NCBI RefSeq assembly: GCF_964204645.1
Contig: NC_134031.1
Location: forward strand, 14,495,807-14,559,806
DNA: 64,000 nt
Origin: Tubulanus polymorphus
Taxonomy: Eukaryota; Animalia; Nemertea
Reading direction: 5' to 3'
The stretch's first letter is position 1, and the number at the start of each line of letters is the position of its first letter. Position numbers and translations under genes: made by a program. The notes under the pieces are model-generated. The model saw only the letters and a program-made list of their open reading frames with translations. It did not search any database and was not told the origin of the DNA. Positions 3,734-64,000 of this stretch are shown here, in pieces.

Positions 3734-5962
3734 AGGTAATAATGCCTGAAGTAAAAATGCCACAGGTGAAAATGCCAGAAGGAAATGTGAGGAAAATTAA
3801 GCAAAGAATTTTTATTAACATTGGACCTCATTTATACTATATTTTACGTATTGAATGCACAGTTTAGATATATAAAACATAGAACGATAACCACACTCAA
3901 ACGTGGTGAACTAATAATAATGTAACAACTAGAATTTTCAGTGCACTCGGGAACTAGCTCGTCAAAATTAATCCAAAGTCAACAATTCCAACTTGATAAA
4001 ATATCTTTTATTCAAATGCTTGGTCGGCAACTGCTCAGTACAAACTACCAACCAAAAGTGTGCGTTGTGTCCCTCATTCTGTTTCAACTGACTCTTATAT
4101 CTATATATATATTCCTGCATAGTAACAAAAACTTAGGTATGAAAAACAAAGGTGACAGACAGTGAGTAGACAATTTGAGCAACAACATGCCATAAACAAA
4201 GACAGAAAGAACATATGACTAATTACTTTACAAACACGACTAACAAATACATTTCTAAACAAAACAACAAGTTGCTATAATAAGACAAAAACCCACTATC
4301 TACAGATTAAAAGAATTTAAAAACAAAAATTCATTTATTAAATCTAAAATATATATAAGACACGTCGACGTTTCGATCTCACCCTAGAGATCATCGTGAG
4401 GTGTGAGATATTGACAAAAAACGGGTATATATACAGAGGAGAACAGGTTAATTGAGTAAATTGGTGAGTGAGTAAATAATTAGTGTTTGGCAAGGCATGA
4501 AGTAATATACTTAGAAAGAAGGGAATTGTGCGGAGAAAAGCCATTATTCAAATTGGCGCTAATATAAGAGTGACGAGTAATTACGGAAGACTCAACTATG
4601 TGGTGTTTAGTGTAATTGCTGGAAGTATAAATAATTTCGGCTTTATCAAAATTAAAACGACCAGTGACCAGTGTTCCGAACGTGATTTGCTACGCCACTA
4701 GCCGGTTTTTTTTTATTTATTATATCCTTTTTGTGTTCCGAAATTCGAGTTTTTAATTCACGACCAGTTTCTCCAAAGTAAATTTTATCACAGCCAAAAC
4801 AAGGAATTTTGTAAACTCCGCAGTCCAAAGGTTTAGATTGATTGTTTTTAACCAAAGCCTTACTAATTTTGTTTTCATACGTGAAAATGATTTGTTTATC
4901 CAGGGAGAGAGTGACGAAACTTTTCCAAAACAGGTACATACGGAATAACAATGAACTCTGAAATGTGTTTTTTTATTTTCTGGAGGTTTAGAATTGAAAG
5001 AAAGTACGTTAAGCGTTAGAAATAGCGATTTTCAAAATGTGATCAGATACGTCTGATTTTCTGAAGTATGATTTTACATCAGACTTCCAAATCGTGTATA
5101 CATCCGCCATTTTGACCGAATAATCCGATTTACTCATCATTTATATTTATGCCTGCCGCTTGCGATATGATCATATATCCTCTAATGATATTCAATGCAA
5201 TATGACATTTCGACGTTCAGAGAGAGCTCGTTATATGATCATAGGAAGCCATTGGACATCTTTATCAATAATATTTTGCCAAATAGCTTGTATGTGTTCA
5301 CATATACCTGTGACGTTTTGCACATCGATTTACAGTTTTCGTTTGTAAAATGACGCTGAATGGTTAACATTGTTTAGGTTTCATAATGGTAACGTTTTGT
5401 AAGGCGTCAAAAAACTATTCATCGAATTGTTGCTTTGATGTTATGAAATTGAGCAAACTAACTCGTCAAAAACTTCTTGATTTTAATCATCATACCTATT
5501 ATTATACCTAGAAATATGCTTTATCTAAACTGTGCATTCAATATGTAAACTCTGTGCATTCATTAGTACATTTGTTAATATTCATTTATTTAGAAATGTG
5601 TTACATATCATGACTATGTTCCCGTTTTGATTACAATTATATAAGAATATGTGTTAATTTTCTAATTTCCAATGATCTCAAAATAAAAATATCAATAATT
5701 TTAATGCTTATGTTTTATAGATTTGTGAGTTTACAAATTTGTCATTTTTTTATTATCATAGGCCAGAATATGTTCAGAACTGTGCATTCATTACGTAAAA
5801 TCTAGTGTAAATATGAAATTTCAGGTCCAATGTTAATAGATTCTTCACTTAATTTTCCTCATATTTCCTTCTGGCATTTTTACCTCTGGCATTTTTACCT
5901 ATGGTGTGATTTTTCCTCTACCATTTTTACCTCTGGCATTTTTACTTCTGGTATTATTACCT
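3734..5962. mobile_element. Non-autonomous DNA transposon with long (~140+ bp) imperfect TIRs built from AGGTAAAAATGCC subrepeats
   Basis: Left 'aggtaataatgcctgaagtaaaaatgcc...gaggaaaattaag...attaacattggacct...tgaatgcacagtt' is the reverse complement of right 'aactgtgcattca...aggtccaatgttaat...cttaattttcctc...ggcatttttacttctggtattattacct'. TSD not resolved. Confidence 0.65.
4360..4951 (-). mobile_element. Penelope-like retroelement 3' fragment (GIY-YIG endonuclease remnant plus hammerhead-like motif)
   Basis: ORF 4652-4951(-) reads 'CGVYKIPCFGCDKIYFGETGRELKTRISEH...SGVANH...TGH', the typical PLE GIY-YIG with the CCHH pattern. Downstream on the same strand is 'ctcacga-t-gatctc..gagatc-gaaa-cgtc' (~4365-4400). 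Confidence 0.85.
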
Positions 5963-8755: not shown

Positions 8756-10934
8756 AATCAGGTCGTACCAATCACAGCGCTTGTAACAAACCGGCAGTAG
8801 ACTTCTGTTGGTTTTCCCGTTAAATGGACCAATCAGCGAACGTTTTACCGAACAAGGAAGTATTTCGCAAATCGATATATGACGTCATGCGCAACAGTGC
8901 CAGTAATGAAATCACGCTTCGTGAGGCCAGGGGGCTGGTGGAAGCGAGTTCGGGAGTGATACTGGACCCCTGGCAAGATCCCGAATTAGAAATAACGTGT
9001 GATAGCCGCTTCAATCTCATATTTCAAAAAAAAAATCAATGCGTCTCATTTATAGCCACGGTTTTGGGTCCTCTCTGAAATAATGCTTATAATATTCAAT
9101 ACAATATTTACTGATAGAATAAATCTTTACCCGCATCACGGGCTTTCTGCTGCACATTACGTCGTTTGTATTTTTTCTTAACTTGTGTGACACAACTCCA
9201 GCAGTAGTGGTTTCCTGGCTTAACTCCGAAACACGAAAAAAACTGTTACAGTATTTCTGAGCAAAACGCGCATTGACCACGAGCAGGAAAAGAGTTTCTG
9301 CCTCGGCCTTACTGCGATGCGCTTGGCTTAAGTCACTTGTGCGGAGATAAAGTTCGTTGATTCGTATTGGTGTACCCCTTGATCTTCAGAACTCCGCGTA
9401 ATGACTAGAATCCCTTCGAAACTCAACACGGTTTTAACTGAGCTTTTATTTCTTCATTCATTCATTATTTTCTCTACACGAATTCCACCTGGGACTAGCG
9501 AACCACGCCGAGGGATTGTGGAAGTAAAAATGTTTGGTGGCGCCGGTTATGTTTATATACTCGTGGTATACCAGTGCCGCTCTCTGCGATTATTCCACCG
9601 TGCGAAAAATATCAGAATAATCCCCGATGCGGTATTATGCTGCTTTTCAAAACTGATGTTGGATTTCAAGTATGAAAATACCAAAGGCGTGATCAATCAA
9701 ACTTTCTTGGTTTGGTACACTGGGGTAACGTTGTGCTGTTTGTCCCGTGTTTATCACGTTTCTGGCAATACAATAAAAGTCTTAGAGTGTCTACTAGTGA
9801 CCGCTGAGATTGGACGCATATGTTAAGACCGAGGCCTCAGAATTTAATCCCTTTTTGCCACGGCGCTGGAGCATTTCAAGTGACCCAACCTCTACCATCT
9901 GGTGGGCACTATTCAAGTTCAAATATTCGTTCAATAAATGCAAATACACCATCGGATATCCGCAATAAAGAAGAAAGTACAAAGAGAATTATTTTTGATT
10001 TAGATAACAACGTATAGATTCGTCAGACTCGGTGGGGGGTATCTTATTTTTCATTTGTCAACTTGGAATTTCAATGGAATCTGAAATCTTTTGCAACAGC
10101 ACGGATGCGCATTTTCCTCCTTGACGGGGGCTGCTGATGCCTCATGCCTGAAGAATGAATTGCTGACTCGACGTGTCCCGCGAATGTTGCTATTTTTAGA
10201 TCTCCGATTACAAAAAAAAACCTAAATAAATAGATTGATATGAATCTTACATTCTTGTGCTTGATAAATTATTCAAAAGCAAGACCATGTTACATTTGCG
10301 TCTATTTTTCTACATCACCAGCGTTCTGCTCCGAGATTGCTAGGATCAAGTTTAACGAGACGAGTGACTATACCCGGTTAAAACGGCTAGTCATCGAACC
10401 GGAATGACGGTCTATCAATACGCATAGAACTGTCTGACCACTTGTGTTTTATATCACCACATACGCATTAGTTTACTGTTTCTGATGTTTTGACTGTAAA
10501 CTCAGTCTCATCGCCGCGATAGCTGGAAAGAGAAACAAATAGAACCCGATGAAGACTGCAAATAGAACCCGATGAAGACTGTATATACGTAAGTGTACAA
10601 ATATGTATTCAATATTCACGTGCCTGTGCCGCTTTCTTACTGACGGTCTATCAATTCGCATAGCACTGTCTGTTTGATTGCGACGCATCCACGGACCTAA
10701 CTATGCACTGTATATTAGAAACACAAAACTGCTCCCCGTGTAAAAACTTTTACTTTTAGGCAAACTCAGCACCAGATGTGAAGTACCGATTGTGCACCCC
10801 TTGGCGGAGAAACCCATCCTCATCGGAGCTGCACCGTCGAGGTCATAAACTACACTTCGGATACCACCGACCATACTTTCATCTGGAAAATTTGCGTTTC
10901 GAAAAACTACAATAAACTATCGGACTATTTACTA

Positions 10935-11174
10935 CGGAAGCCCCTAGGTGACATACGAGAAATTCTTTTCACAATTTCGACTTAATAAGTCGAATTTCGA
11001 CTTAATAAGTCGAATTTCGACATAATAAGTCAAATTTCGACATAATAAGTCGAATTTCGACATAATAAGTCGAATTTCGTGTTAATCAAGTCGAATTTCG
11101 ACTTAATAAGTCGAAATTCGACATGAAAATAAAACTCGAAATTCGACTTAATTAACTCGAAATTCGACTTAATA
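10935..11174. mobile_element. Partial copy of the CGGAAGCCCC MITE family (21-bp palindromic subrepeats)
   Basis: TA|CGGAAGCCCCTAGGTGACATACGAGA followed by a (TTCGACTTAATAAGTCGAAT)n array. Near-identical to 21150-21438; only one terminus found. Confidence 0.75.
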
Positions 11175-12031: not shown

Positions 12032-12286
12032 ATCTATTAAAGAAGGATTAACGTATCGCTGGTAAATTATCAAATATTTATCCATTATCAAAGCCCATAT
12101 TCAAGTGCCTGTGCCCCGGCCCGCTAAATCGCACTAGTTTCTAACCACAGGTATCGTAAACACACCTACGCCACCAAACATTGTATATTCATTAGGGTTG
12201 TCGGGCTTATCTGGAATTACGTCATAGCATTTGACTTTAGACGGGAATTCCGGAGGAAATCCTCGTATATGTCAATGAAATAGAAA

Positions 12287-14437
12287 ATGGCCTCCACTTC
12301 GACTATCGAGAATTTGGGGCGTACTTTATCCAGAGAAGATTTTAATGCGGAAACGTTTGTTTGTAAGATCGCGAATAGTGGAGGTGAGGATGATCTGATC
12401 GATATACAGCGCACTGTGCAGCAGATAGCAGACGAGACCGCCCTCAATCTGAAAAAAAATGTCTACAAAAACTACACTCAGTTCATCGAAACGGCGAAAG
12501 AGATTTCGATTCTGGAGGGTGAGATGTATCAGTTGAGTCACATGTTATCGGAACAGAAACTGCTGCTGGATGAAATGAAGGAGATGTCGCTAGTAAGCGA
12601 CGAAGTCGATGCCCGACAGTCGGCCCCTGGGCTCGAAGACGAGTCGGATGGTAAACCGGGCGAGGGTGCCGCCGAGACCCGTCAGAACGTGGCGTCGTTA
12701 CTGGAGAACGTAGAGGGGTGTTCACGCGTAACTGAGGTCCCCGGTCGACTCCTCGTCCATCACGGGGATCTGATGGAACTCGACCCTGAAACGTTTTCCA
12801 ATATCGAACAAATTCACGTTTATTTACTTAATGATAGTTTATTGTTCGCTACGTTGTTACCGCACGGGATAGGACCAGTTAAATTCAAATTTCAAAATCT
12901 GTACGAGTTGGACAGCCTAGCGGTGGTTAACGCGCGGGATATCGGTCACGTTAAAAACGCGTTCAAGATTCTAATGTTTCCCGATACTCGCATGCTTAAA
13001 TGCGACTCTGCGAAAGAGAAACGATTCTGGTTGGAAATTCTGGAGGAAACGAAAAAAAAGAAATCAGCACTCGAATCGCGTAAACGAGAGTCGGTCGTCG
13101 ACTTGCGGGAACAACGTAAATCAGTCGTCGACCCGCGGGTCAATAACCGAAAATCGATCGTCGACTCGCGCGCCGCCGATCGGCGGACGGACGAACCGGA
13201 TTCGAGTCCGGCGTTATCGTCCGTCATTGATCTATCCCTGTTGCACGAGGACTGGGTTCGGGAAGTCCCCGAAGATTTAGACGTTTTCGTCGCTCAGCGA
13301 GATTTCGAAAGCGCCGTCGAAAAAATCGCCGAAATCAACGAACATTTGAAACGCGTTCCGAAATCGGTGGCGCTGACGGAATATCGAGCTCGCATCGATC
13401 ACCGCGTGAAACATCTAACGGACGCGCTCGTTCAGGAGTTACGGGTTTCCCCGGAGCGATCGATGAGGGGCGGTCCTCGTGCAGCTCGTCGCGCCGTTAC
13501 TCAACTGATTAAACTCGGTCAGTCGGCGCGAGCCTGTCGTCTCTTCCTGCTCAATCGCGAGGCGATCATCACGTATAATTTGAAGCAGTTGAAACTAGAG
13601 GGCGCTGTCACCGTGTTCGTGCGTAAATTATGCGAGGTTTTTTTCTCGAGTTTGATCGATACCGGGCGAGAGTTCGATAAAGCTTTCGAAGGTCACTACG
13701 GCTGTTACTCGGAGTTCGTAGTTTGGTGCGAGGGTCAGATACGAGGATTCGTCGCGATCTTCACCAGTCAGATCCTGCAACCCGACACGAGCGAGATCAA
13801 TAAGAGCGTGTCGCTAGGGGCGATCGCCGAGTGCGTGCGAGTCGCGCGTCGTCATAGCGACCGGTTGATCGAGCTCGGTTTAGAGTTGACGTACATTCTG
13901 AACGATCACCTGCGGGTGATCGCGGAGAAAGCGATCACGGAACATCGCGATCAGCTACTCGAGGCGGCGAAGCACCGCGCGGCGGACGACACGTGGCGTC
14001 CGGAGAATCTATCGACGCGGGACGACGTCGACGCGTATCTGACGGAGCTCTCCGAGTCCGGACTCGTTACCATACGAGATTACGTCGATTCCGATTGGCT
14101 GTCGCTGACGACCAATACGACGCAATTCAGTCGCGCATTTTTAATCTACGTCGATAATTTGTGTAAGATCTACACGGAGGAGTTGCACTGCGCGATCATC
14201 GACTCGCTCGCCGACGTCTTGAAATTTCAACTGAAACACGTCGAACGAGCGTTGACGACGCAACAATTCATTAAAGAGCACGCGTTCGTGCTTAGCAACG
14301 GAGGGTTCATCGTCGACGTCGTGTTGAGGCGAACCGAGGAGAAACTCAGCGCCTGTACTGGTAACCACAGTTACCAGTTTTATCAAATTCACGCCGCGTA
14401 TAAACGTATAAAACAAAACGCCGCTCAGAAAGTTTAA
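12287..14437 (+). CDS. EXOC8: Exocyst complex component 8 (Exo84), intronless, 716 aa
   Basis: N-terminal Vps51-like segment 'LKKNVYKNYTQFIETAKEISILEGEMYQLSHMLSEQK', a PH domain ('YLLNDSLL..LAVVNARD..KNAFKILMFPDTR') and Exo84 C-terminal motifs 'PEDLDVFVAQRDFESAV', 'SPERSMRGGPRAARRAVTQLIKLG'. Confidence 0.96.
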   Translation: MASTSTIENLGRTLSREDFNAETFVCKIANSGGEDDLIDIQRTVQQIADETALNLKKNVYKNYTQFIETAKEISILEGEMYQLSHMLSEQKLLLDEMKEMSLVSDEVDARQSAPGLEDESDGKPGEGAAETRQNVASLLENVEGCSRVTEVPGRLLVHHGDLMELDPETFSNIEQIHVYLLNDSLLFATLLPHGIGPVKFKFQNLYELDSLAVVNARDIGHVKNAFKILMFPDTRMLKCDSAKEKRFWLEILEETKKKKSALESRKRESVVDLREQRKSVVDPRVNNRKSIVDSRAADRRTDEPDSSPALSSVIDLSLLHEDWVREVPEDLDVFVAQRDFESAVEKIAEINEHLKRVPKSVALTEYRARIDHRVKHLTDALVQELRVSPERSMRGGPRAARRAVTQLIKLGQSARACRLFLLNREAIITYNLKQLKLEGAVTVFVRKLCEVFFSSLIDTGREFDKAFEGHYGCYSEFVVWCEGQIRGFVAIFTSQILQPDTSEINKSVSLGAIAECVRVARRHSDRLIELGLELTYILNDHLRVIAEKAITEHRDQLLEAAKHRAADDTWRPENLSTRDDVDAYLTELSESGLVTIRDYVDSDWLSLTTNTTQFSRAFLIYVDNLCKIYTEELHCAIIDSLADVLKFQLKHVERALTTQQFIKEHAFVLSNGGFIVDVVLRRTEEKLSACTGNHSYQFYQIHAAYKRIKQNAAQKV

Positions 14438-15131
14438 ACAGCGACATTTCGAGAGAAAAAAAGAAACAGTCGAAATCGTTAGAAATATCAAATATATGAA
14501 ATACATTCTAAACACCTTAAACTATTAATATTTCAATATTTCAAATCAATAATATTTGAATTTTTGAAAAATCCATTAAATTTAGCGTTTCTCATGTCAT
14601 TCTTACCAATATGTATTTAATGTTACTATTTGTTAAAACGTATGAAAACGATTTAATCAGCTTTTATTCTTCAACACAGCGCAGGATGATGATAATTCCG
14701 TAACGAAATGTTAATCGATGCTTTTGCAACATATGTTTATTGATTTCGACGTTAATAGTGCAATTTAATAGGATTAAATAAAAAATTATCCTATCGTTAA
14801 TCATTGTCGCTTTTCATTGTAATTTCTTGGACGGTGCTGTTTTTTTTAAATGAGATTTGGGGGAAAATTCTTGTTGATGAATGGAATTCTTTGACCCAAA
14901 ATATGGCGTTGAGACTTTCTACAGTGCTGCCTAGTACAGAGGGACGATATTGGACTGAACTTGTTAAGTGCAAAGTGTATATATTTGCTGTCACAATGCA
15001 ATACTTTTTTAAAAATAAACTGGTAGTATTCAGTCGCGCTTCGAACGAGCCTGTCAGACTCACTACTACTCAGACTCACTACTACTCTGAATGAGTGATC
15101 AGCAATTACTAGGTACGAACCTGGGACACCC

Positions 15132-15397
15132 TTAGTTACTTACCTAATCGTTGGTGGTAAGCTTTTTATTATCGGATGTGGTTTGTGAAAATATCCGATC
15201 GTGAAACTAAACCACAGACAGGTTACTGACTAATGTCTGTCTCAGTCCAGTTTGCCGCGGCATTTTTGTTAGGCAAAGGATATCAAATGTACACATTTTA
15301 ATTGGTACTGACAGCTGATAGGGACCCTCAGTAACCTGGTTGGTATAAGCCCATCCGATTATAAAAAGCTTACTACCAACGATTAGGTAACTAACTA
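15132..15397. mobile_element. Composite of two inverted TAG...CTA MITE copies flanked by 9-bp direct repeat GGGACACCC
   Basis: Forward copy 15132-15232 and reverse copy ~15328-15397 of the family also seen at 26356 and 31338. GGGACACCC lies at 15123-15131 and 15398-15406. Confidence 0.7.
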
Positions 15398-15713: not shown

Positions 15714-15873
15714 CTGGGTTCGGTTTCATACACTGGTATCAAAGTTATCCCTAGGGATAACTCCTAAGTCTGGTTAACAACCACCACAGTAACAATGAGA
15801 AACCATGGCTATGACAAATTTCAAAATGTTCCCAGGGACTATTTTGCTTGCACATCTATGAAACCCAGCCCAG
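15714..15873. mobile_element. MITE (second copy at ~49728-49900) abutting the Polinton-like insertion
   Basis: 'tttcata.actggtatcaaagttatccctagggataact...acatctatgaaacccag.ccagg' is present at both loci. Confidence 0.7.
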
Positions 15874-16177
15874 GCATTAGTAATAGGGGTTTAGTTGTTC
15901 TAGATCAAAGGTCGAACGGTCGAGCTCGTAAAAATGAAAAACATGAAAATAATAACAATTTCTACTTGAATTAGTCGCGAAACTCATAAAAATGAACATA
16001 ATTTACATGAATTTCATATATTTTAAAAACATTTATATGTTAATTACAAAAGTGTGAGTAATAATTCATATTTTAACAGATTTCGAGTAAAAATATAAGT
16101 AAAATAAATGGACAACTAAAAGAGTATAAAAGTGTGAGTAAAGTGTGAGTGAAATAGTTTATATTTTAAACATATTT

Positions 16178-16550
16178 CAATATTTATATGTGTTAAATTC
16201 TTATTTTCAATATAAAAAGTAACGAGTAATTAACGAGTGAAATAATTCATGTTTAAATCATTGAATATTTATATTTATATGTGTTAAATTCTTATTTTCA
16301 ATATAAAAAGTAACGAGTAATTAACGAGTGAAATAATTTATATTTAAAACAGTGAATATTTATATTTATATGTGTTAAATTCTTATTTTCAGTATAAAAG
16401 TAACGAGTAATTAACGAGTGAAATAATTCATATTTAAAACAGTGAATATTTATATTTATATGTGTTAAATTCTTGATTTTTAATATAGAAAGTAACGAGT
16501 AATTAACGAGTGAAATAATTCATATTTTAAACATTGAATATTTATATTTG
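16178..16550 (+). repeat. Four ~91-bp subterminal tandem repeats (mirrored at ~20303-20675)
   Basis: GTAACGAGTAATTAACGAGTGAAATAATT starts at 16219, 16310, 16400 and 16492. Confidence 0.9.
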
Positions 16551-16551
16551 A

Positions 16552-17170
16552 ATGAGTTTTAATAAAAATTTTGTTATAAAAATGAGAGCCCAACTTTAAA
16601 ATCGAAATCAATGAAACCAATAAATCATTTTCACAGTTTAACATTAGAAATTATATTTCAGCGACAAATTTAGTGTCCGCCAGACATTATAAAATCGATA
16701 ACATAACTATGATTAATCAAATATTATCAAATGAAACATATTTAATTACTGAACTAGTAGATACTTTTGATAATGGCGTTAAAAATCCTAAAATGTTCAA
16801 GACAGTTTTAAATTTTAAAGGAATTTTAGATGAAAACATAATAAATATTCTTAAAACTCCTTTTAATAAAAGAGATAGTGATTTGATACTTTCAAAAGAT
16901 TATAATGATTTGATTAACTTAAGAATTGAAAAAAGACAATTATATTATTTCAATTTTGATAATAAACAAATTATCTATAATGAAAATTCATCAAATATTG
17001 GTATTCAATGTGAATTAGATAATGAAAAATCATTTAAAGATATTGTAGATAATGAAATTGTTGCGCCTAAATATAATCCTAATGAAAGCGTTTTATGTAA
17101 TTGTGGAAAATATTATACTCGAAGCAATAAATCACACCATCTTAAATCAAAATATCATAACACATATTAA
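16552..17170 (+). pseudogene. Frameshifted left-TIR copy of the 209-aa zinc-finger gene
   Basis: Same sequence as 19672-20301(-), but 'atgaagaaagaagaagagccc' is reduced to 'atgagagccc' (11-bp deletion; 619 vs 630 bp). The 165-aa GTG-start ORF in the track is only the remainder. Confidence 0.85.
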
Positions 17171-17264
17171 AGATAAAAACTAATAACATAACTGATGATT
17201 TAAAAACATTAAAACATCATTTTGATTTCAGTAACTATCCTAAAGATCATGAATTGTTTAGCAT

Positions 17265-17606
17265 GAAATGATAAATTGTTTGACAGTTGAAATGATAAAT
17301 TGTTTGGTAGTTGAAATGATAAATTGTTTGACAGTTGAAATGATAAATTGTTTGACAGTTGAAATGATAAATTGTTTGACAGTTGAAATGATAAATTGTT
17401 TGACAGTTGAAATGATAAATTGTTTGACAGTTGAAATGATAAATTGTTTGACAGTTGAAATGATAAATTGTTTGACAGTTGAAATGATAAATTGTTTGAC
17501 AGTTGAAATGATAAATTGTTTGACAGTTGAAATGATAAATTGTTTGACAGTTGAAATGATAAATTGTTAGACAGTTGAAATGATAAATTGTTAGACAGTT
17601 GAAATG
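17265..17606 (+). repeat. 24-bp tandem array (GAAATGATAAATTGTTTGACAGTT) x~14; inverted partner at 19273-19578
   Basis: Directly visible; it produces the (MINCLTVE)n ORFs in the track. Confidence 0.95.
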
Positions 17607-18575
17607 AGTTAGTTAATCAAAAATAGGGGTTTAAGTATTAATTGACTTGGATTCTTGTTAACCAATAGCGTGAATAGAAATCAAAAAGATTTAAATAAAA
17701 AAAACATAAGTTAAATAAGTTAGTATTAGATAAAGTAACTTATTGTTTTTTTATTTAAATCTTTTTGATTTCTATTCACGCTATTGGTTAACAAGAATTG
17801 ACTAGAATTCAAATAGATTTAACAAGAAATTCAATAACTTTAACTGTTAGTATCACTCTTGTATTATTTCATTGTTTCTCTTATTGAATAAGCCAACCAA
17901 CTAATATCACTCTTGTATTATCCTAGTCAAATGTAAAGAATTTACAATATCATATTTGAATGAATTAAAACATAAATTACTTCTGTGACTTCATTTTCAG
18001 AAATAAAGCATAATATGTATTTAATACATTAATACGTACTTAAGTACGTAGTTAAGTATGTACTAAATACCTTAATACTTAAACCCCTTTTTTTGATTAA
18101 CTAATATTTCATACAATATTTCATACATTTCAGCTAATTTAACAGTCTTATTCTTAATTTGTAATTTAGTTTATGAGTATACAATCTACACAATTTAATA
18201 CTTAAACAGTTAAACAATCTAGCGGATTCATTGTAATCCTCTTTTATTAATGATAAATGTAAATATATAATTGAATATGATTTATACTTTTCCAAATATT
18301 TATAATGTAATCTATTTTTTATTTTTATTAAGTGAAAACATATAATTTATTCATTTTTATAAAACTAAGTAAGACAGGTACGAGTAAGAATCCAAGAAAT
18401 CTTACTTTCTTGGCAAGAATCTTGGATTCTTACTTGTACGTCTAGTGCATAGATATATAAATTAGTTTTTATAAAAATTAAAAACATAAATTATTAATCT
18501 AAGTATAGAAATAGTTAAATTAGTTAGAAAATATAATCTATTTTTATATTTTCAACCAATTTAACAGTCTTATTC

Positions 18576-18881
18576 TCAATTTGAATTATGTAATTTTTCA
18601 TCAAGTTCATGAATATATTTATGATTTCTCAAACTCTTTTTATTTTTATATCTTTTATTACATATTTCACAGCATTTAATATTATTCAATCTATCTGAAA
18701 TATAATTTATGTTATCTTTCAATTCTGTATATCTTATTTTACAAGAATCATAAAATTCTAACAACTGTTTTATAGTATAAACTGAGAATGAAAATAAACC
18801 TGAAATCATAATAATTGATTTAGTATTTTGTTGATTTTTGTATATTAGATGTAATATTTCTAATACCTTATTTTCACTCAT
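18576..18881 (-). CDS. Element ORF, 101 aa: hydrophobic segment, coiled region and C-terminal C2H2 zinc finger
   Basis: Hydrophobic stretch 'IIMISGLFSFSVYTI'; canonical C2H2 finger 'CEICNKRYKNKKSLRNHKYIH'. An open frame with a canonical finger in such AT-rich DNA is unlikely by chance. Start context TATAAAAATG. Confidence 0.75.
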   Translation of the reverse strand: MSENKVLEILHLIYKNQQNTKSIIMISGLFSFSVYTIKQLLEFYDSCKIRYTELKDNINYISDRLNNIKCCEICNKRYKNKKSLRNHKYIHELDEKLHNSN

Positions 18882-18928
18882 TTTTATAGTTAAAATATAT
18901 AGAATAAATTAAATTAAAAGATGCTGTT

Positions 18929-19147
18929 TTAATCCTCTAATTCTTTTAAATCATTAACTTTTTTATTGTTATTTTTTCTGTGATTGTTTCCATTTAACTT
19001 CTTTAATTTCTTGCTCAATTTTATATTTTCATTAATCAAATCCTTACTGATATTTTCATAATAAAAGAAAAGTGCAGCCAATATTAATCCTCCTGCTACT
19101 GAATAATGTTTCAAATCACTTTTCCCAGTTGAGATGAAACCATTCAT
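18929..19147 (-). CDS. Element ORF, 72 aa: single predicted TM helix plus Lys/Asn-rich coiled tail
   Basis: Hydrophobic helix 'SVAGGLILAALFFYY', then a heptad-like 'LINENIKLSKKLKKL'. Start context TAAATG; head-to-tail with the 101-aa ORF. Confidence 0.6.
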   Translation of the reverse strand: MNGFISTGKSDLKHYSVAGGLILAALFFYYENISKDLINENIKLSKKLKKLNGNNHRKNNNKKVNDLKELED

Positions 19148-19272
19148 TTATTTAAGAGAAAAATTAAACAGTTTATAAAATATTTGCTAGTTTTTAATTA
19201 AATATTTTATAATCATTTTTAAAATATTAAACTTTTAAATGATTAAATCAAATAACAATCAAATTTACAGCC

Positions 19273-20985
19273 AAACAATTTAACATTTCAACAGTCTAAC
19301 AATTTAACATTTCAATAGTCAAACAATTTAACATTTTAACAGTCGAATAATTTAACATTTTAACAGTCAAACAATTTATCATTTCAACTGTCAAACAATT
19401 TATCATTTCAACTGCCAAACAATTTATCATTTCAACTGTCAAACAATTTATCATTTCAACTGTCAAACAATTTATCATTTCAACTGCCAAACAATTTATC
19501 ATTTCAACTGTCAAACAATTTATCATTTCAACTACCAAACAATTTATCATTTCAACTGTCAAACAATTTATCATTTCATGCTAAACAATTCATGATCTTT
19601 AGGATAGTTACTGAAATCAAAATGATGTTTTAATGTTTTTAAATCATCAGTTATGTTATTAGTTTTTATCTTTAATATGTGTTATGATATTTTGATTTAA
19701 GATGGTGTGATTTATTGCTTCGAGTATAATATTTTCCACAATTACATAAAACGCTTTCATTAGGATTATATTTAGGCGCAACAATTTCATTATCTACAAT
19801 ATCTTTAAATGATTTTTCATTATCTAATTCACATTGAATACCAATATTTGATGAATTTTCATTATAGATAATTTGTTTATTATCAAAATTGAAATAATAT
19901 AATTGTCTTTTTTCAATTCTTAAGTTAATCAAATCATTATAATCTTTTGAAAGTATCAAATCACTATCTCTTTTATTAAAAGGAGTTTTAAGAATATTTA
20001 TTATGTTTTCATCTAAAATTCCTTTAAAATTTAAAACTGTATTGAACATTTTAGGATTTTTAACGCCATTATCAAAAGTATCTACTAGTTCAGTAATTAA
20101 ATATGTTTCATTTGATAATATTTGATTAATCATAGTTATGTTATCGATTTTATAATGTCTGGCGGACACTAAATTTGTCGCTGAAATATAATTTCTAATG
20201 TTAAACTGTGAAAATGATTTATTGGTTTCATTGATTTCGATTTTAAAGTTGGGCTCTTCTTCTTTCTTCATTTTTATAACAAAATTTTTATCAAAACTCA
20301 TTCAAATATAAATATTCAATGTTTTAAATATGAATTATTTCACTCGTTAATTACTCGTTACTTTCTATATTAAAAATCAAGAATTTAACACATATAAATA
20401 TAAATATTCACTGTTTTAAATATGAATTATTTCACTCGTTAATTACTCGTTACTTTTATACTGAAAATAAGAATTTAACACATATAAATATAAATATTCA
20501 CTGTTTTAAATATAAATTATTTCACTCGTTAATTACTCGTTACTTTTTATATTAAAAATAAGAATTTAACACATATAAATATAAATATTCAATGATTTAA
20601 ACGTGAATTATTTCACTCGTTAATTACTCGTTACTTTTTATATTGAAAATAAGAATTTAACACATATAAATATTGAAATATGTTTAAAATATAAACTATT
20701 TCACTCACACTTTACTCACACTTTTATACTCTTTTAGTTGTCCATTTATTTTACTTATATTTTTACTCGAAATCTGTTAAAATATGAATTATTACTCACA
20801 CTTTACTCACACTTTTGTAATTAACATATAATTGATTTTAAAATATATGAAATTCATGTAAATTATGTTCATTTTTATGAGCTTCGCGACTAATTCAAGT
20901 AGAAATTGTTATTATTTTCATGTTTTTCATTTTTACGAGCTCGGCCGTTAGACCTTTGATCTAGAACAACTAAACCCCTATTACT
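19273..20985 (-). repeat. Right terminal inverted repeat
   Basis: Mirror of 15879-17606. Confidence 0.93.
19672..20301 (-). CDS. Element ORF in the right TIR, 209 aa (199 aa from the second Met at 20271), with C-terminal CxCG...H-x5-H zinc finger
   Basis: Intact 630-bp ORF ending 'ESVLCNCGKYYTRSNKSHHLKSKYH', a finger type common in large-DNA-virus and polinton-like-virus proteins. The N-terminal domain is not recognised. Confidence 0.8.
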   Translation of the reverse strand: MSFDKNFVIKMKKEEEPNFKIEINETNKSFSQFNIRNYISATNLVSARHYKIDNITMINQILSNETYLITELVDTFDNGVKNPKMFNTVLNFKGILDENIINILKTPFNKRDSDLILSKDYNDLINLRIEKRQLYYFNFDNKQIIYNENSSNIGIQCELDNEKSFKDIVDNEIVAPKYNPNESVLCNCGKYYTRSNKSHHLKSKYHNTY

Positions 20986-21149
20986 GGCATTACCAACTAT
21001 TTCGGTCATAATAGTGTAATATCTGACCGCTGCACGGACTGCCATTGATCTGTTTTCAATTGTTGCGGACCTAGTAGCGTAGCAACAATGGTCCGTTATT
21101 TTTCAAAATGGAGTGATTGTTTTTTTAGAAAGAATGTGACTTAAAAATA

Positions 21150-21438
21150 CGGAAGCCCCTAGGTGACATATGAGATAATTTTTTTCATAATTTCGACTTA
21201 TTAAGTCGAATTTCGACATAATAAGTCGAATTTCGTGTTAATTAAGTCGAATTTCGACTTAATAAGTCGAAATTCGACATGAAAATAAAACTCGAAATTC
21301 GACTTAATTAACTCGAAATTCGACTTATTATGTCGAAATTCGACTTATTATGTCGAAATTCGACTTATTATGTCGAAATTCGACTTAATAAGTCGAAATT
21401 GTGAAAAAGTCTTCTCGTATGTCACCTAGGGGCTTCCG
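21150..21438. mobile_element. Complete MITE with TA TSD and 21-bp palindromic subrepeats
   Basis: TA|CGGAAGCCCCTAGGTGACATA...TATGTCACCTAGGGGCTTCCG|TA. Confidence 0.85.
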
Positions 21439-23275
21439 TATAAAAACGTTCACCAGCGTGAAACTTTTTTTATTTTCAAAGATACAGACCATCACAACCA
21501 GCGAGAAACTTGTCGGAAATGTTCTGAAGTTTTGATTCATATAAGATATGATAAACGGAATCTGCTGTCTTTGAGTGAATTTCCAATTTCTTCCGACTTG
21601 ACAGGTTTTCGTCAAATCTGCGAAATTGTGTTTTGAGAGCTAAAAAGTAAAACATTTTTTTCCAAATCCAGTCAATATTTTTTGGTTTTTCTCTATGGCT
21701 TATATTTTCGCCGTTTGATGACAATTTTTTGATTGGTAGTTTTATTTCCTATCGTCGGAATATGGAGAAACGGGTGATTTTTACCATGACATATTGACAA
21801 TCGATGGCGAAAAAAGCTAATTTTTGGATTGGAAAAAGTACAACGATTTTTTTAAAGCTACCCATACTTATTTTATATCATCGATTCGCAAATTTTTCAA
21901 ATAAAATGATGGTAACGACAAAATTTTGATTTTACTTATGATATTTTAATAATAACAGTTAGAAGATGTTACGGCTTCAGAAATGCAGTTAATTGTTGCC
22001 AACGATAATTATCAGAACTCGCGCGTGCGTAATTTTCGTTCAGTTCGACTGATAGTCGAACTCGTTTTCCGATTTTCTCGACTACCCAAACTGGCGGGGT
22101 AGTCTAGGAATAGGCCAATGGAAACGCCGCTTGATCTCATTACAATAGGAGTCGGGCAAAGTTTCTGTTTGCCACGGCTGCGCGGTGACTCCACCGACAC
22201 AACATGCGGTTAATCGCACTAGGCAGTTACGTGCAAAACGCACAGAAAACTGCGCGAATTATTATCTGAAAATGAATTACCAAATCGTATTAGCTGGGAA
22301 AATTCGTTTTGGATATTACAGAAATCCGCGCGACGCAGAAGGTTACAAGAAAATACTATAGAACTCAAATCAAATTGATTTGAGTTCGATGAAAATACGC
22401 AGCTTTTCAGCAGCGTGGCACTCGATCCTTGGTAAAATATCTATATGCTTTTTCAGTTTTTTTTTTCTCGAGCAGCGCAGCGGGCACATCGAGTCGATAA
22501 CAGCACCGATTCAAAGAAATAACTATGATAATCACAGGAAAATAATCACAGGACGTGAAAATTGCCGCCACGTTTGTGTGGACCCGCATATAAATATATT
22601 CTATCGATTTAACAATTGCAATTTCACAAGAAGACAAAATTACCGAGTATGCTGCTCAGAGTTAAGCTGCTGCTGCGGAAATTGACTCCATCCCTATGAT
22701 AGAGCGTCCAATGCAATGTTATATTATATATATATTTTAAGTATATATTTGAATTTCAATTCTTTCTTCACAGATGAGTTTAGGCCTACAATTTGAACAT
22801 ATGTTCAGTTCATTCCAAATCTCATAACGAATTTTATTCATGAACTTTTAAACCAGTAAACCAGAGTCCGGACTTTAAATCGATTTTCTGTTATATCTCA
22901 TAAAAATACCTGAATCTTTTTTTCTTTTTCTTAATGCATAAATCAGAAAGGAATCTTTTTTTCTCAGGGCGCTTCCGTACCAATCATCAGACGCAATCCT
23001 CGAAAGTTTTACTATATATTTAAAATTATGAGAGTGGTTTTATATAAGGAAAATAGTAACGCAACGTGTGCTAATAACTTCCAAATCGACAAATCAATTT
23101 GCGAACGTAATTTCACCCGGGTAAAGCATTGGTTAACGGGAAATGCTTTTGATTCGTTCGAAATCAATGTATCCTGAAACAACAGAGCTTTGGACATAAC
23201 TGGTGTCCGTGTACCGTCTTCATTTTTGCCAGTTTGAGTTTGCATGATGAAAGCATACGTTGATATTGAGATGTG

Positions 23276-25086: not shown

Positions 25087-25450
25087 AGTAATAGGGAATA
25101 AGTTGTTTCAGGCCAAAGGTCGGGTTGAGCACACTCTCCCCATAACAACCTTTGACCTGAAACAACTTATTCCCTATTACTCTTGAAATATTCATATATG
25201 AACATTATTTAAATGAATTTCATATATTTTGAAATAAATATTCATGTTTTAAAAGTGAGAGTAAAATGTTAGCATAATAATCTAGAAAAATAAGATCATA
25301 TATAGATTTCAGCAATAAAAATTCAATTTTAAACATAAGTGTGAGTAAAGTGTGAGTAAGATAATTCATATTTAAAACATTGAATATTTATATTCATATG
25401 TGTTAAATTCTAACACACGTGAGTTTCGTTCATTTTCATGTTTTATTTTT
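25087..25450. mobile_element. Relic of a related Polinton-like family (paired termini plus subterminal sequence)
   Basis: AGTAATAGGGAATAAGTTGTTTCAGGCCAAAGGT at 25087 with its inverted copy ending at 25181, then 'atgaatttcatatatttt', 'aagtgtgagtaaagtgtgagta', 'ttgaatatttatattcatatgtgttaaattct', all shared with the TIR at 16007-16300. Confidence 0.7.

Positions 25451-43992: not shown

Positions 43993-64000
<20,008 letters not shown>

Follow-up and report, generated by a model that had tools for sequence, protein, structure and literature searches.

In a stretch of 64,000 nucleotides from the nemertean Tubulanus polymorphus (assembly GCF_964204645.1, contig NC_134031.1, positions 14,495,807 to 14,559,806; hereafter the window) we analysed an inserted element of 5.1 kb, which is built from one 3.25-kb end and a gapped copy of this same end mirrored around a 22-bp spacer, with deletions on the left side. 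The origin we favour as probable is a snap-back (fold-back) event, in which one end of a multi-copy element of the Polinton/Maverick type would have given rise to a defective copy, dependent on a helper for copying and insertion. Seen directly are a target-site duplication (TSD), the matching ends, the mirror anatomy and the existence of a family of copies; no gene for replication, integration or a capsid is present. The coordinates of all features are given in Table 1.

The mirror anatomy was analysed by BLAST comparison of the sequence left of position 17714 with the reverse complement of the sequence right of position 17735. Left of the spacer, 1,825 of the 1,835 bases are mirrored in the right half; they fall into three collinear blocks, i.e. 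the arm, a 33-bp block (17609-17641 versus 18072-18104) and a 63-bp block (17651-17713 versus 17736-17798), while 1,439 of the 3,250 bp of the right half have no mirror. Because nearly the whole left half is accounted for in this way, almost no independent core exists, and the two arms around a core of their own, as pictured in the original prediction made from the sequence alone, give way to a gapped mirror. Two halves that are reverse complements of each other, separated by only a short spacer (22 bp), are the hallmark of snap-back molecules, and all of the element's sequence can be explained without a contribution from a second, different end. The arms, predicted to be near-identical over ~1.7 kb, are near-identical (99% identity) over 1,598 and 1,620 bp; 1.7 kb is reached only if the degenerate part of the 24-bp array is counted in. 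The insertion looks young at this arm identity, as had been predicted. A TGAAAT stretch at the outer junction of the 33-bp block (17609-17641) is common to both sides. Within this block, AATAGGGGTTTA at 17622-17635 equals bases 4-15 of the element end, the partner at 18072-18104 being one letter off.

These features suggest a model according to which, during replication of the excised parent, the right-end strand would have formed a fold-back at a short inverted repeat, today located at 17651-17798, and copied itself outwards; alternatively, a template switch at the arm boundary might have had this effect. The product would have been a molecule with two proper ends and the genes of just one end, which a helper integrase would have inserted, making the 6-bp duplication. 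Deletions in the left half would have removed the mirror of ~1.44 kb including two of the three open reading frames (ORFs), ORF72 and ORF101, named by their length in amino acids, and the left copy of ORF209 would have been frameshifted, either before or after insertion. The proposed Polinton cycle includes an excised single-stranded form, which would permit fold-back, and direct observation of Polinton replication is, according to the same source, still lacking (PMC11131425). Snap-back defective genomes are known from adeno-associated virus (AAV) (PMC8235507), which, as described there, resemble the proposed element in that one end of a linear genome is self-copied, only the genes of that end are present and a helper is needed. 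In contrast to the element, AAV snap-back forms are packaged and not integrated with a TSD, and their replication proteins are unrelated.

The TSD and ends suggest a connection of the element to Polintons. The exact GGCATT duplication and the AGT...ACT termini reported in the original prediction were both confirmed, the chance of an exact hexamer duplication at given ends being ~2e-4, and so was the extreme AT richness, with a GC content of 21.7% versus ~33-45% for most flanking kilobases. A 6-bp TSD is given as the rule for Mavericks (PMC8097293, PMC10045372), and for vertebrate Mavericks it is described together with ends of the type (AGT)2//(ACT)2 or (AG)3//(CT)3, 96% of copies being defective (PMC8097293). 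In contrast, IS3EU/GingerRoot elements are reported with a 6-bp TSD but TA..TA (or TG..CA) ends (PMC10045372) and Ginger elements with TG ends and 4-5-bp TSDs (PMC2836005), so that a 6-bp TSD with AGT...ACT ends fits Mavericks and neither of these groups. With Polintons/Mavericks as portrayed in PMC8097293 and PMC6431247 the element shares this TSD, the AGT...ACT ends, long terminal inverted repeats (TIRs) and intronless genes; the TSD and the long TIRs are the Polinton cis features present. It differs from them in its length of 5.1 kb versus 15-25 kb, in the lack of pPolB, integrase, ATPase, protease and capsid genes, in the end hexamer AGTAAT versus AGTAGT and in a left half that is nearly all mirror of the right half. 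The longest ORF comprises 209 amino acids and gives no Pfam match to pPolB or RVE integrase, and no Pfam or PHROG match to a capsid protein, packaging ATPase or protease was found in the element, bearing out the predicted non-autonomy without replication or capsid genes; the fold of ORF209 is modelled at low confidence, and it might conceivably be a small virion protein that has diverged very far. As neither a core gene nor a parent was found, the Polinton assignment rests on ends and TSD.

A Foldback-type element, or a non-autonomous member of another TIR superfamily unrelated to Polintons, would equally account for the missing Polinton genes, and long, internally repetitive arms are described as typical for Foldback/Galileo too (PMC3573991). 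Yet the remaining 6-bp-TSD groups compared have TA..TA or TG..CA ends, and the dense, intronless and very AT-rich small genes would fit virus-like elements, making this explanation very improbable. The element is neither an autonomous Polinton nor a transpoviron, and its sequence suggests that it behaves like a non-autonomous derivative of a putative Polinton parent, in agreement with several genomic copies (8-24 copy-equivalents inside and 25-350 at the ends). Non-autonomous Polintons, going back to Kapitonov and Jurka in 2006 and to Repbase, are said to be internal deletions keeping both parental ends. The element shares with them the kept ends, the loss of core genes and the need for a helper, whereas it consists of one end and its gapped mirror and has accessory genes. 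Long TIRs with genes inside have precedents, since butterfly polintons are reported with 2-kb TIRs holding genes in two copies (bioRxiv 2025.02.07.637071), and nematode Mavericks are reported to carry cargo genes (bioRxiv 2022.07.12.499685). Our literature search revealed no description of a snap-back or gene-carrying non-autonomous Polinton, although Kapitonov and Jurka 2006, Pritham 2007, Repbase or supplements may hold one; the available text of PMC11296320, PMC6431247 and PMC11131425 defines the family and contains nothing on small derivatives.

The family of copies was surveyed in raw genomic DNA reads of another study (run X5, ~12% of the run, 88% likeness), covering the ends and the inner region outside the ORF209 region and both arrays; no RNA data set was among the matching runs listed. 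For single-copy depth, 17 of 30 bins (13640-15067) gave 5.0 +/- 1.8, and the remaining 13 lie within repeats or the element; AT bias and hairpin dropout may depress all depths. Expressed as copy-equivalents, depth falls from ~350 at 15908-15991 to 45 at 15992-16075 and 25 at 16076-16140, and the inner region shows 14 at 17720-17999, 8 at 18056-18559 and 24 over ORF72/ORF101, in support of the prediction that the element is more than single-copy. By likeness to the element, the 1,303 reads divide into 41 with at least 99%, 441 with 95-99%, 601 with 90-95% and 220 below 90%. Opposite-strand joints are abundant (15974/15979 in 116 reads and 15996/15996 in 156 reads, among the 15 of 212 joints listed), suggesting many short fold-back elements made from the terminal 100-120 bp. 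The same ends forming short fold-backs elsewhere, as seen from these joints and the steep fall in depth, support the snap-back origin.

The left inner junction (17608-17663), in contrast, reaches only 0.4 copy-equivalents versus 8-24 elsewhere in the inner region, supporting a derivative private to the window. The window's letters at 18823 and 19101 occur in 0/105 and 0/112 reads, respectively, so the window copy is likely absent from the X5 animal, a heterozygous copy being missed at one of these sites with a probability of 0.08. Given both results, the conserved ~5-kb satellite structure of the original prediction is not supported. Region 18056-18559 is mosaic among copies, with loose ends and joints, and the reads revealed no insertion sites other than the one in the window. 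An assembly artefact, arising from a fold-back chimera among the reads or from the collapse of repeats, could be suspected as palindromes are generally prone to misassembly and no long read or contig spanning the element was found. It is scarcely credible given that the arms differ by 12 sites and two indels, that the left half has internal deletions, that the TSD lies at both ends with different flanks and that ends and inner region are present in raw reads of another study. Besides the remnant ~4 kb away (Table 1), four contigs of run X1 have a similar join before 15984, suggesting that hairpin-capped relatives may form a subfamily. Matches from an end-motif scan (two metagenome loci and one IMG/VR locus) were dismissed as chance, the metagenome pair sharing just a 19-mer with the element and the ORFs of loci L002 and L003 being prokaryotic or phage-like.

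The three ORFs are probably genuine accessory genes of the putative parent family, with small nucleic-acid-binding regulators as their likely products. The three co-oriented minus-strand ORFs of 209, 72 and 101 amino acids of the original prediction are present, but ORF209 had been listed once: lying inside the arm, it recurs with a frameshift on the plus strand of the left arm, a copy that had been overlooked, leaving ORF72 and ORF101 as the only single-copy ORFs within the element. In 2,000 first-order Markov simulations, a 209-aa ORF never arose in the arm; in the same number of simulations of the core, a 101-aa and a 72-aa ORF arose together in none, a 72-aa ORF alone in 80 and a 101-aa ORF in 7. 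Evidence from the copies was obtained from 40 of 288 differences that were listed, 18 of them in ORF101/ORF72, each site being taken singly. Among these 18, 13 are third-position differences (p 9e-4) and 10 are synonymous versus 17.5% expected (p 3e-4), mostly due to ORF101 (8/11 synonymous, compared to 2/7 for ORF72). This predominance of synonymous differences argues for real genes, and the small ORFs show a pattern suggestive of purifying selection across the family, in support of the kept gene set of the original prediction. Listed differences found in at least 93% of reads, a threshold set post hoc, are probably private to the window copy and are non-synonymous in 4 of 5 cases, as expected for decay of this copy, while 9 of 13 shared ones are synonymous. 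Nothing shows that the window copy needs its three ORFs.

ORF209 has no named homologue (0/448 candidates in one search). Against 1.84 billion representatives it gave nine matches, all best on the C-terminal finger, and only one of the nine, the unnamed protein P0002, clearly extends to the N-terminal part; this sole full-length homologue is 24% identical over 254 columns, with an N-terminal score of 77 versus a shuffle maximum of 65 (n=500), the other eight having mainly the finger in common. The two-sequence profile recovered only P0002 itself among 2,648 candidates. No match to ORF209 was found in phage records, the best hits in the PDB (E 0.055) and the Atlas (0.86) being weak, and its AlphaFold models have pLDDT values of 32.6 and 29.1. 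A resemblance to KilA-N or to a minor capsid protein might be suspected. For ORF72, Pfam and PHROGs returned no match; for ORF101, the homologue search yielded 0/1 candidate; there was no Rfam match. Pfam does match the C2H2 finger predicted in ORF101, but the best E of 0.0012 does not reach its cut-offs. The membrane segments predicted in ORF101 and ORF72 are present as marginal stretches (best 19-residue hydropathy 1.52 and 1.24, the usual cut-off for a membrane helix being 1.6), so that helices might be proposed here only weakly.

The motif TATAAAAATG occurs four times in the window, all within the element, i.e. at the ORF209 starts in both arms, at the ORF101 start and in one 8-codon frame. 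Its non-redundant count of three was matched in 0/3,000 simulations, with the motif chosen after the ORF starts were known; a common start signal is one possible reading, a mere AT-rich context of the starts the other. We rejected a fourth gene at 18134-18354 since the motif opens just 8 codons there, and also a neighbouring 70-codon frame, in which a hand count placed 2 of the 10 listed differences on third positions and which has no Pfam match. Within 120 bp past the ORF72 and ORF101 stops there is no AATAAA or ATTAAA. Hairpins at 18014-18069 and 18356-18461 both lie downstream of minus-strand genes; hairpin-defined 3' ends are known from mimiviruses.

Several findings weigh against a snap-back derivative of a Polinton end. 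No Polinton core gene was found in the element and no autonomous parent was found, its end hexamer AGTAAT//ATTACT agrees with AGTAGT in 5 of 6 letters, the published motifs coming from vertebrates, and ORF209 has neither a named homologue nor any homologue in IMG/VR contigs (0/170 and 0/18 candidate stretches). An empty site was not found among the rows listed from the reads. Read depth at the apex fits full-palindrome relatives poorly (root-mean-square error 14.0 versus 4.1 for homology starting near 17686, a fitted edge). Finally, arm divergence is uneven: the outer 706 bp differ by 9 substitutions and the inner 679 bp by 1 (Fisher p 0.02 with a boundary set post hoc), which is unexpected from a single snap-back of one end; the left TIR of the parent itself may survive in the outer 0.7 kb and have been extended inward later. 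Such an inner arm more alike than the outer one would also suit a longer element inserted first and then reshaped in place by fold-back repair, gene conversion and deletion, the 5.1-kb form never having moved; the left junction being private to the window copy is compatible with this, and a TSD survives whatever internal change. But several rearrangements would be needed in a short time, since the arms are 99% identical and the window copy is likely absent from the X5 animal, and the reads contain short fold-backs of these ends in abundance. We consider reshaping in place improbable.

Somewhat more credit, though still rated unlikely, is due to a stable helper-dependent satellite family with copies of 5-6.5 kb, possibly fully palindromic and with micro-genes under their own selection, of which the window copy would be a damaged member. 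The depth over ORF72/ORF101 (24) equals that of the subterminal arm (25), and next to the hairpin it drops to roughly half (14), as would be expected if both arms of ~12 elements carried these genes; moreover, the third-position excess, the confinement of TATAAAAATG to the element with three of four copies at ORF209 and ORF101 starts and the full-length homologue P0002 in another data set point in the same direction. However, selection across copies is equally expected for the ends of full-length Polintons, the depth shape at the apex is a poor fit to a full palindrome, 18056-18559 is mosaic among copies, and one of the four motif copies opens an 8-codon frame, the motif having been picked after the ORF starts were known. 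A bolder version, to which we give just as little weight, is that the species harbours self-standing palindromic mini-replicons of ~5-6.5 kb parasitising a Polinton virus, with mirror-paired genes, TATAAAAATG as shared start signal and selection of their own, i.e. a snap-back-born animal counterpart of transpovirons that would shrink into hundreds of 0.2-kb hairpin elements.

The likeness to transpovirons put forward in the original prediction extends to small size, TIR bounds, an internal tandem repeat and zinc-finger and possibly membrane micro-genes. It breaks down at the helicase, which all known transpovirons are reported to encode (PMC11788076, PMC5499653): transpovirons are described with a superfamily 1 (Tlr1-like) helicase and travel with giant viruses, whereas the element has no ORF longer than 209 aa and sits in an animal chromosome with a TSD. 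No relative of the element was found in the IMG/VR contigs searched. The gene set of the element is more simply read as the block of genes at a single end of a larger element, this end having been copied onto itself. The original observation is thus confirmed in part, and its interpretation is partly supported.

As a natural record, family ends yielding mirror-image derivatives of ~0.2-5 kb would document fold-back during strand-displacement copying. If the short forms have their own TSDs, the cis sequence for copying and insertion would be bounded at roughly 100 bp per end, and if the small genes are selected in the minis themselves, Polintons would have true gene-carrying satellites. As it stands, the present case is one decaying copy with a putative parent.

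Table 1. Features of the proposed snap-back element and its surroundings (positions in the window)
Feature	Position	Strand	Remarks
Whole element	15879..20985	.	5,107 bp, 21.7% GC, ends AGTAAT...ATTACT
Left TSD copy, GGCATT, 6 bp	15873..15878	.	exact match
Right TSD copy, GGCATT, 6 bp	20986..20991	.	exact match
Left arm, near-identical part, 1,598 bp	15879..17476	+	12 substitutions and two 11-bp indels versus right arm
Right arm, near-identical part, 1,620 bp	19366..20985	-	
Subterminal 91-bp tandem array, left, 4.5 units	16147..16549	+	
Subterminal 91-bp tandem array, right, 4.5 units	20304..20706	-	
24-bp tandem array, 14.3 units, 98% matches	17264..17607	+	stops abruptly at first left-side deletion
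24-bp tandem array, 12.8 units, 92% matches	19272..19578	-	degenerates inward
33-bp block	17609..17641	.	mirror of 18072-18104; second collinear block of left half
Central hairpin, 63-bp arms	17651..17798	.	22-bp spacer 17714-17735 is symmetry centre; -58.9 kcal/mol as single-stranded DNA
Second hairpin, 42-bp arms, 79%	18356..18461	.	~115 bp downstream of ORF101
ORF209, right arm	19672..20301	-	unnamed N-terminal domain and C-terminal Cys2-His2-like finger; likely start is second ATG at 20271 (199 aa)
ORF209, mirror copy in left arm	16552..17170	+	frameshift from 11-bp deletion after 16584, just past likely start
ORF72	18929..19147	-	short hydrophobic segment, basic tail; no match to any family
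ORF101	18576..18881	-	weakly hydrophobic N-part and C2H2 finger below threshold; synonymous excess across copies is highest here
Related remnant, ~4 kb away	25087..25411	+	95-bp hairpin from a related end motif plus its inverse; subterminal sequence follows with ~71-73% identity; no TSD
Intronless Exo84 (exocyst) gene	12284-14437		single-copy control for read depth; runs X2 and X3 reach just past stop codon

The insertion site is flanked by the intronless Exo84 gene and a gene for a G-protein-coupled receptor. Directly abutting the element is a high-copy repeat (15723-15874; ~700x depth at 15740-15823) with a second place at 49738-49900, 86% alike, the homology between the two stopping within the first TSD letters. 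Units of 20 bp with TTCGAC/GTCGAA build a palindromic element present in two copies (10928-11174 and 21142-21445), one of which begins ~160 bp from the right element end. A very high-copy repeat with thousands-fold depth is found as two pieces in opposite orientation (15177-15232 and 15339-15397). The same animal window also contains exons with Ig, TSP1 and G2F domains on the minus strand (43993-60773), presumably belonging to a hemicentin gene. A weak GIY-YIG match at 4652-4972 (E 0.0013) is probably a retroelement remnant.

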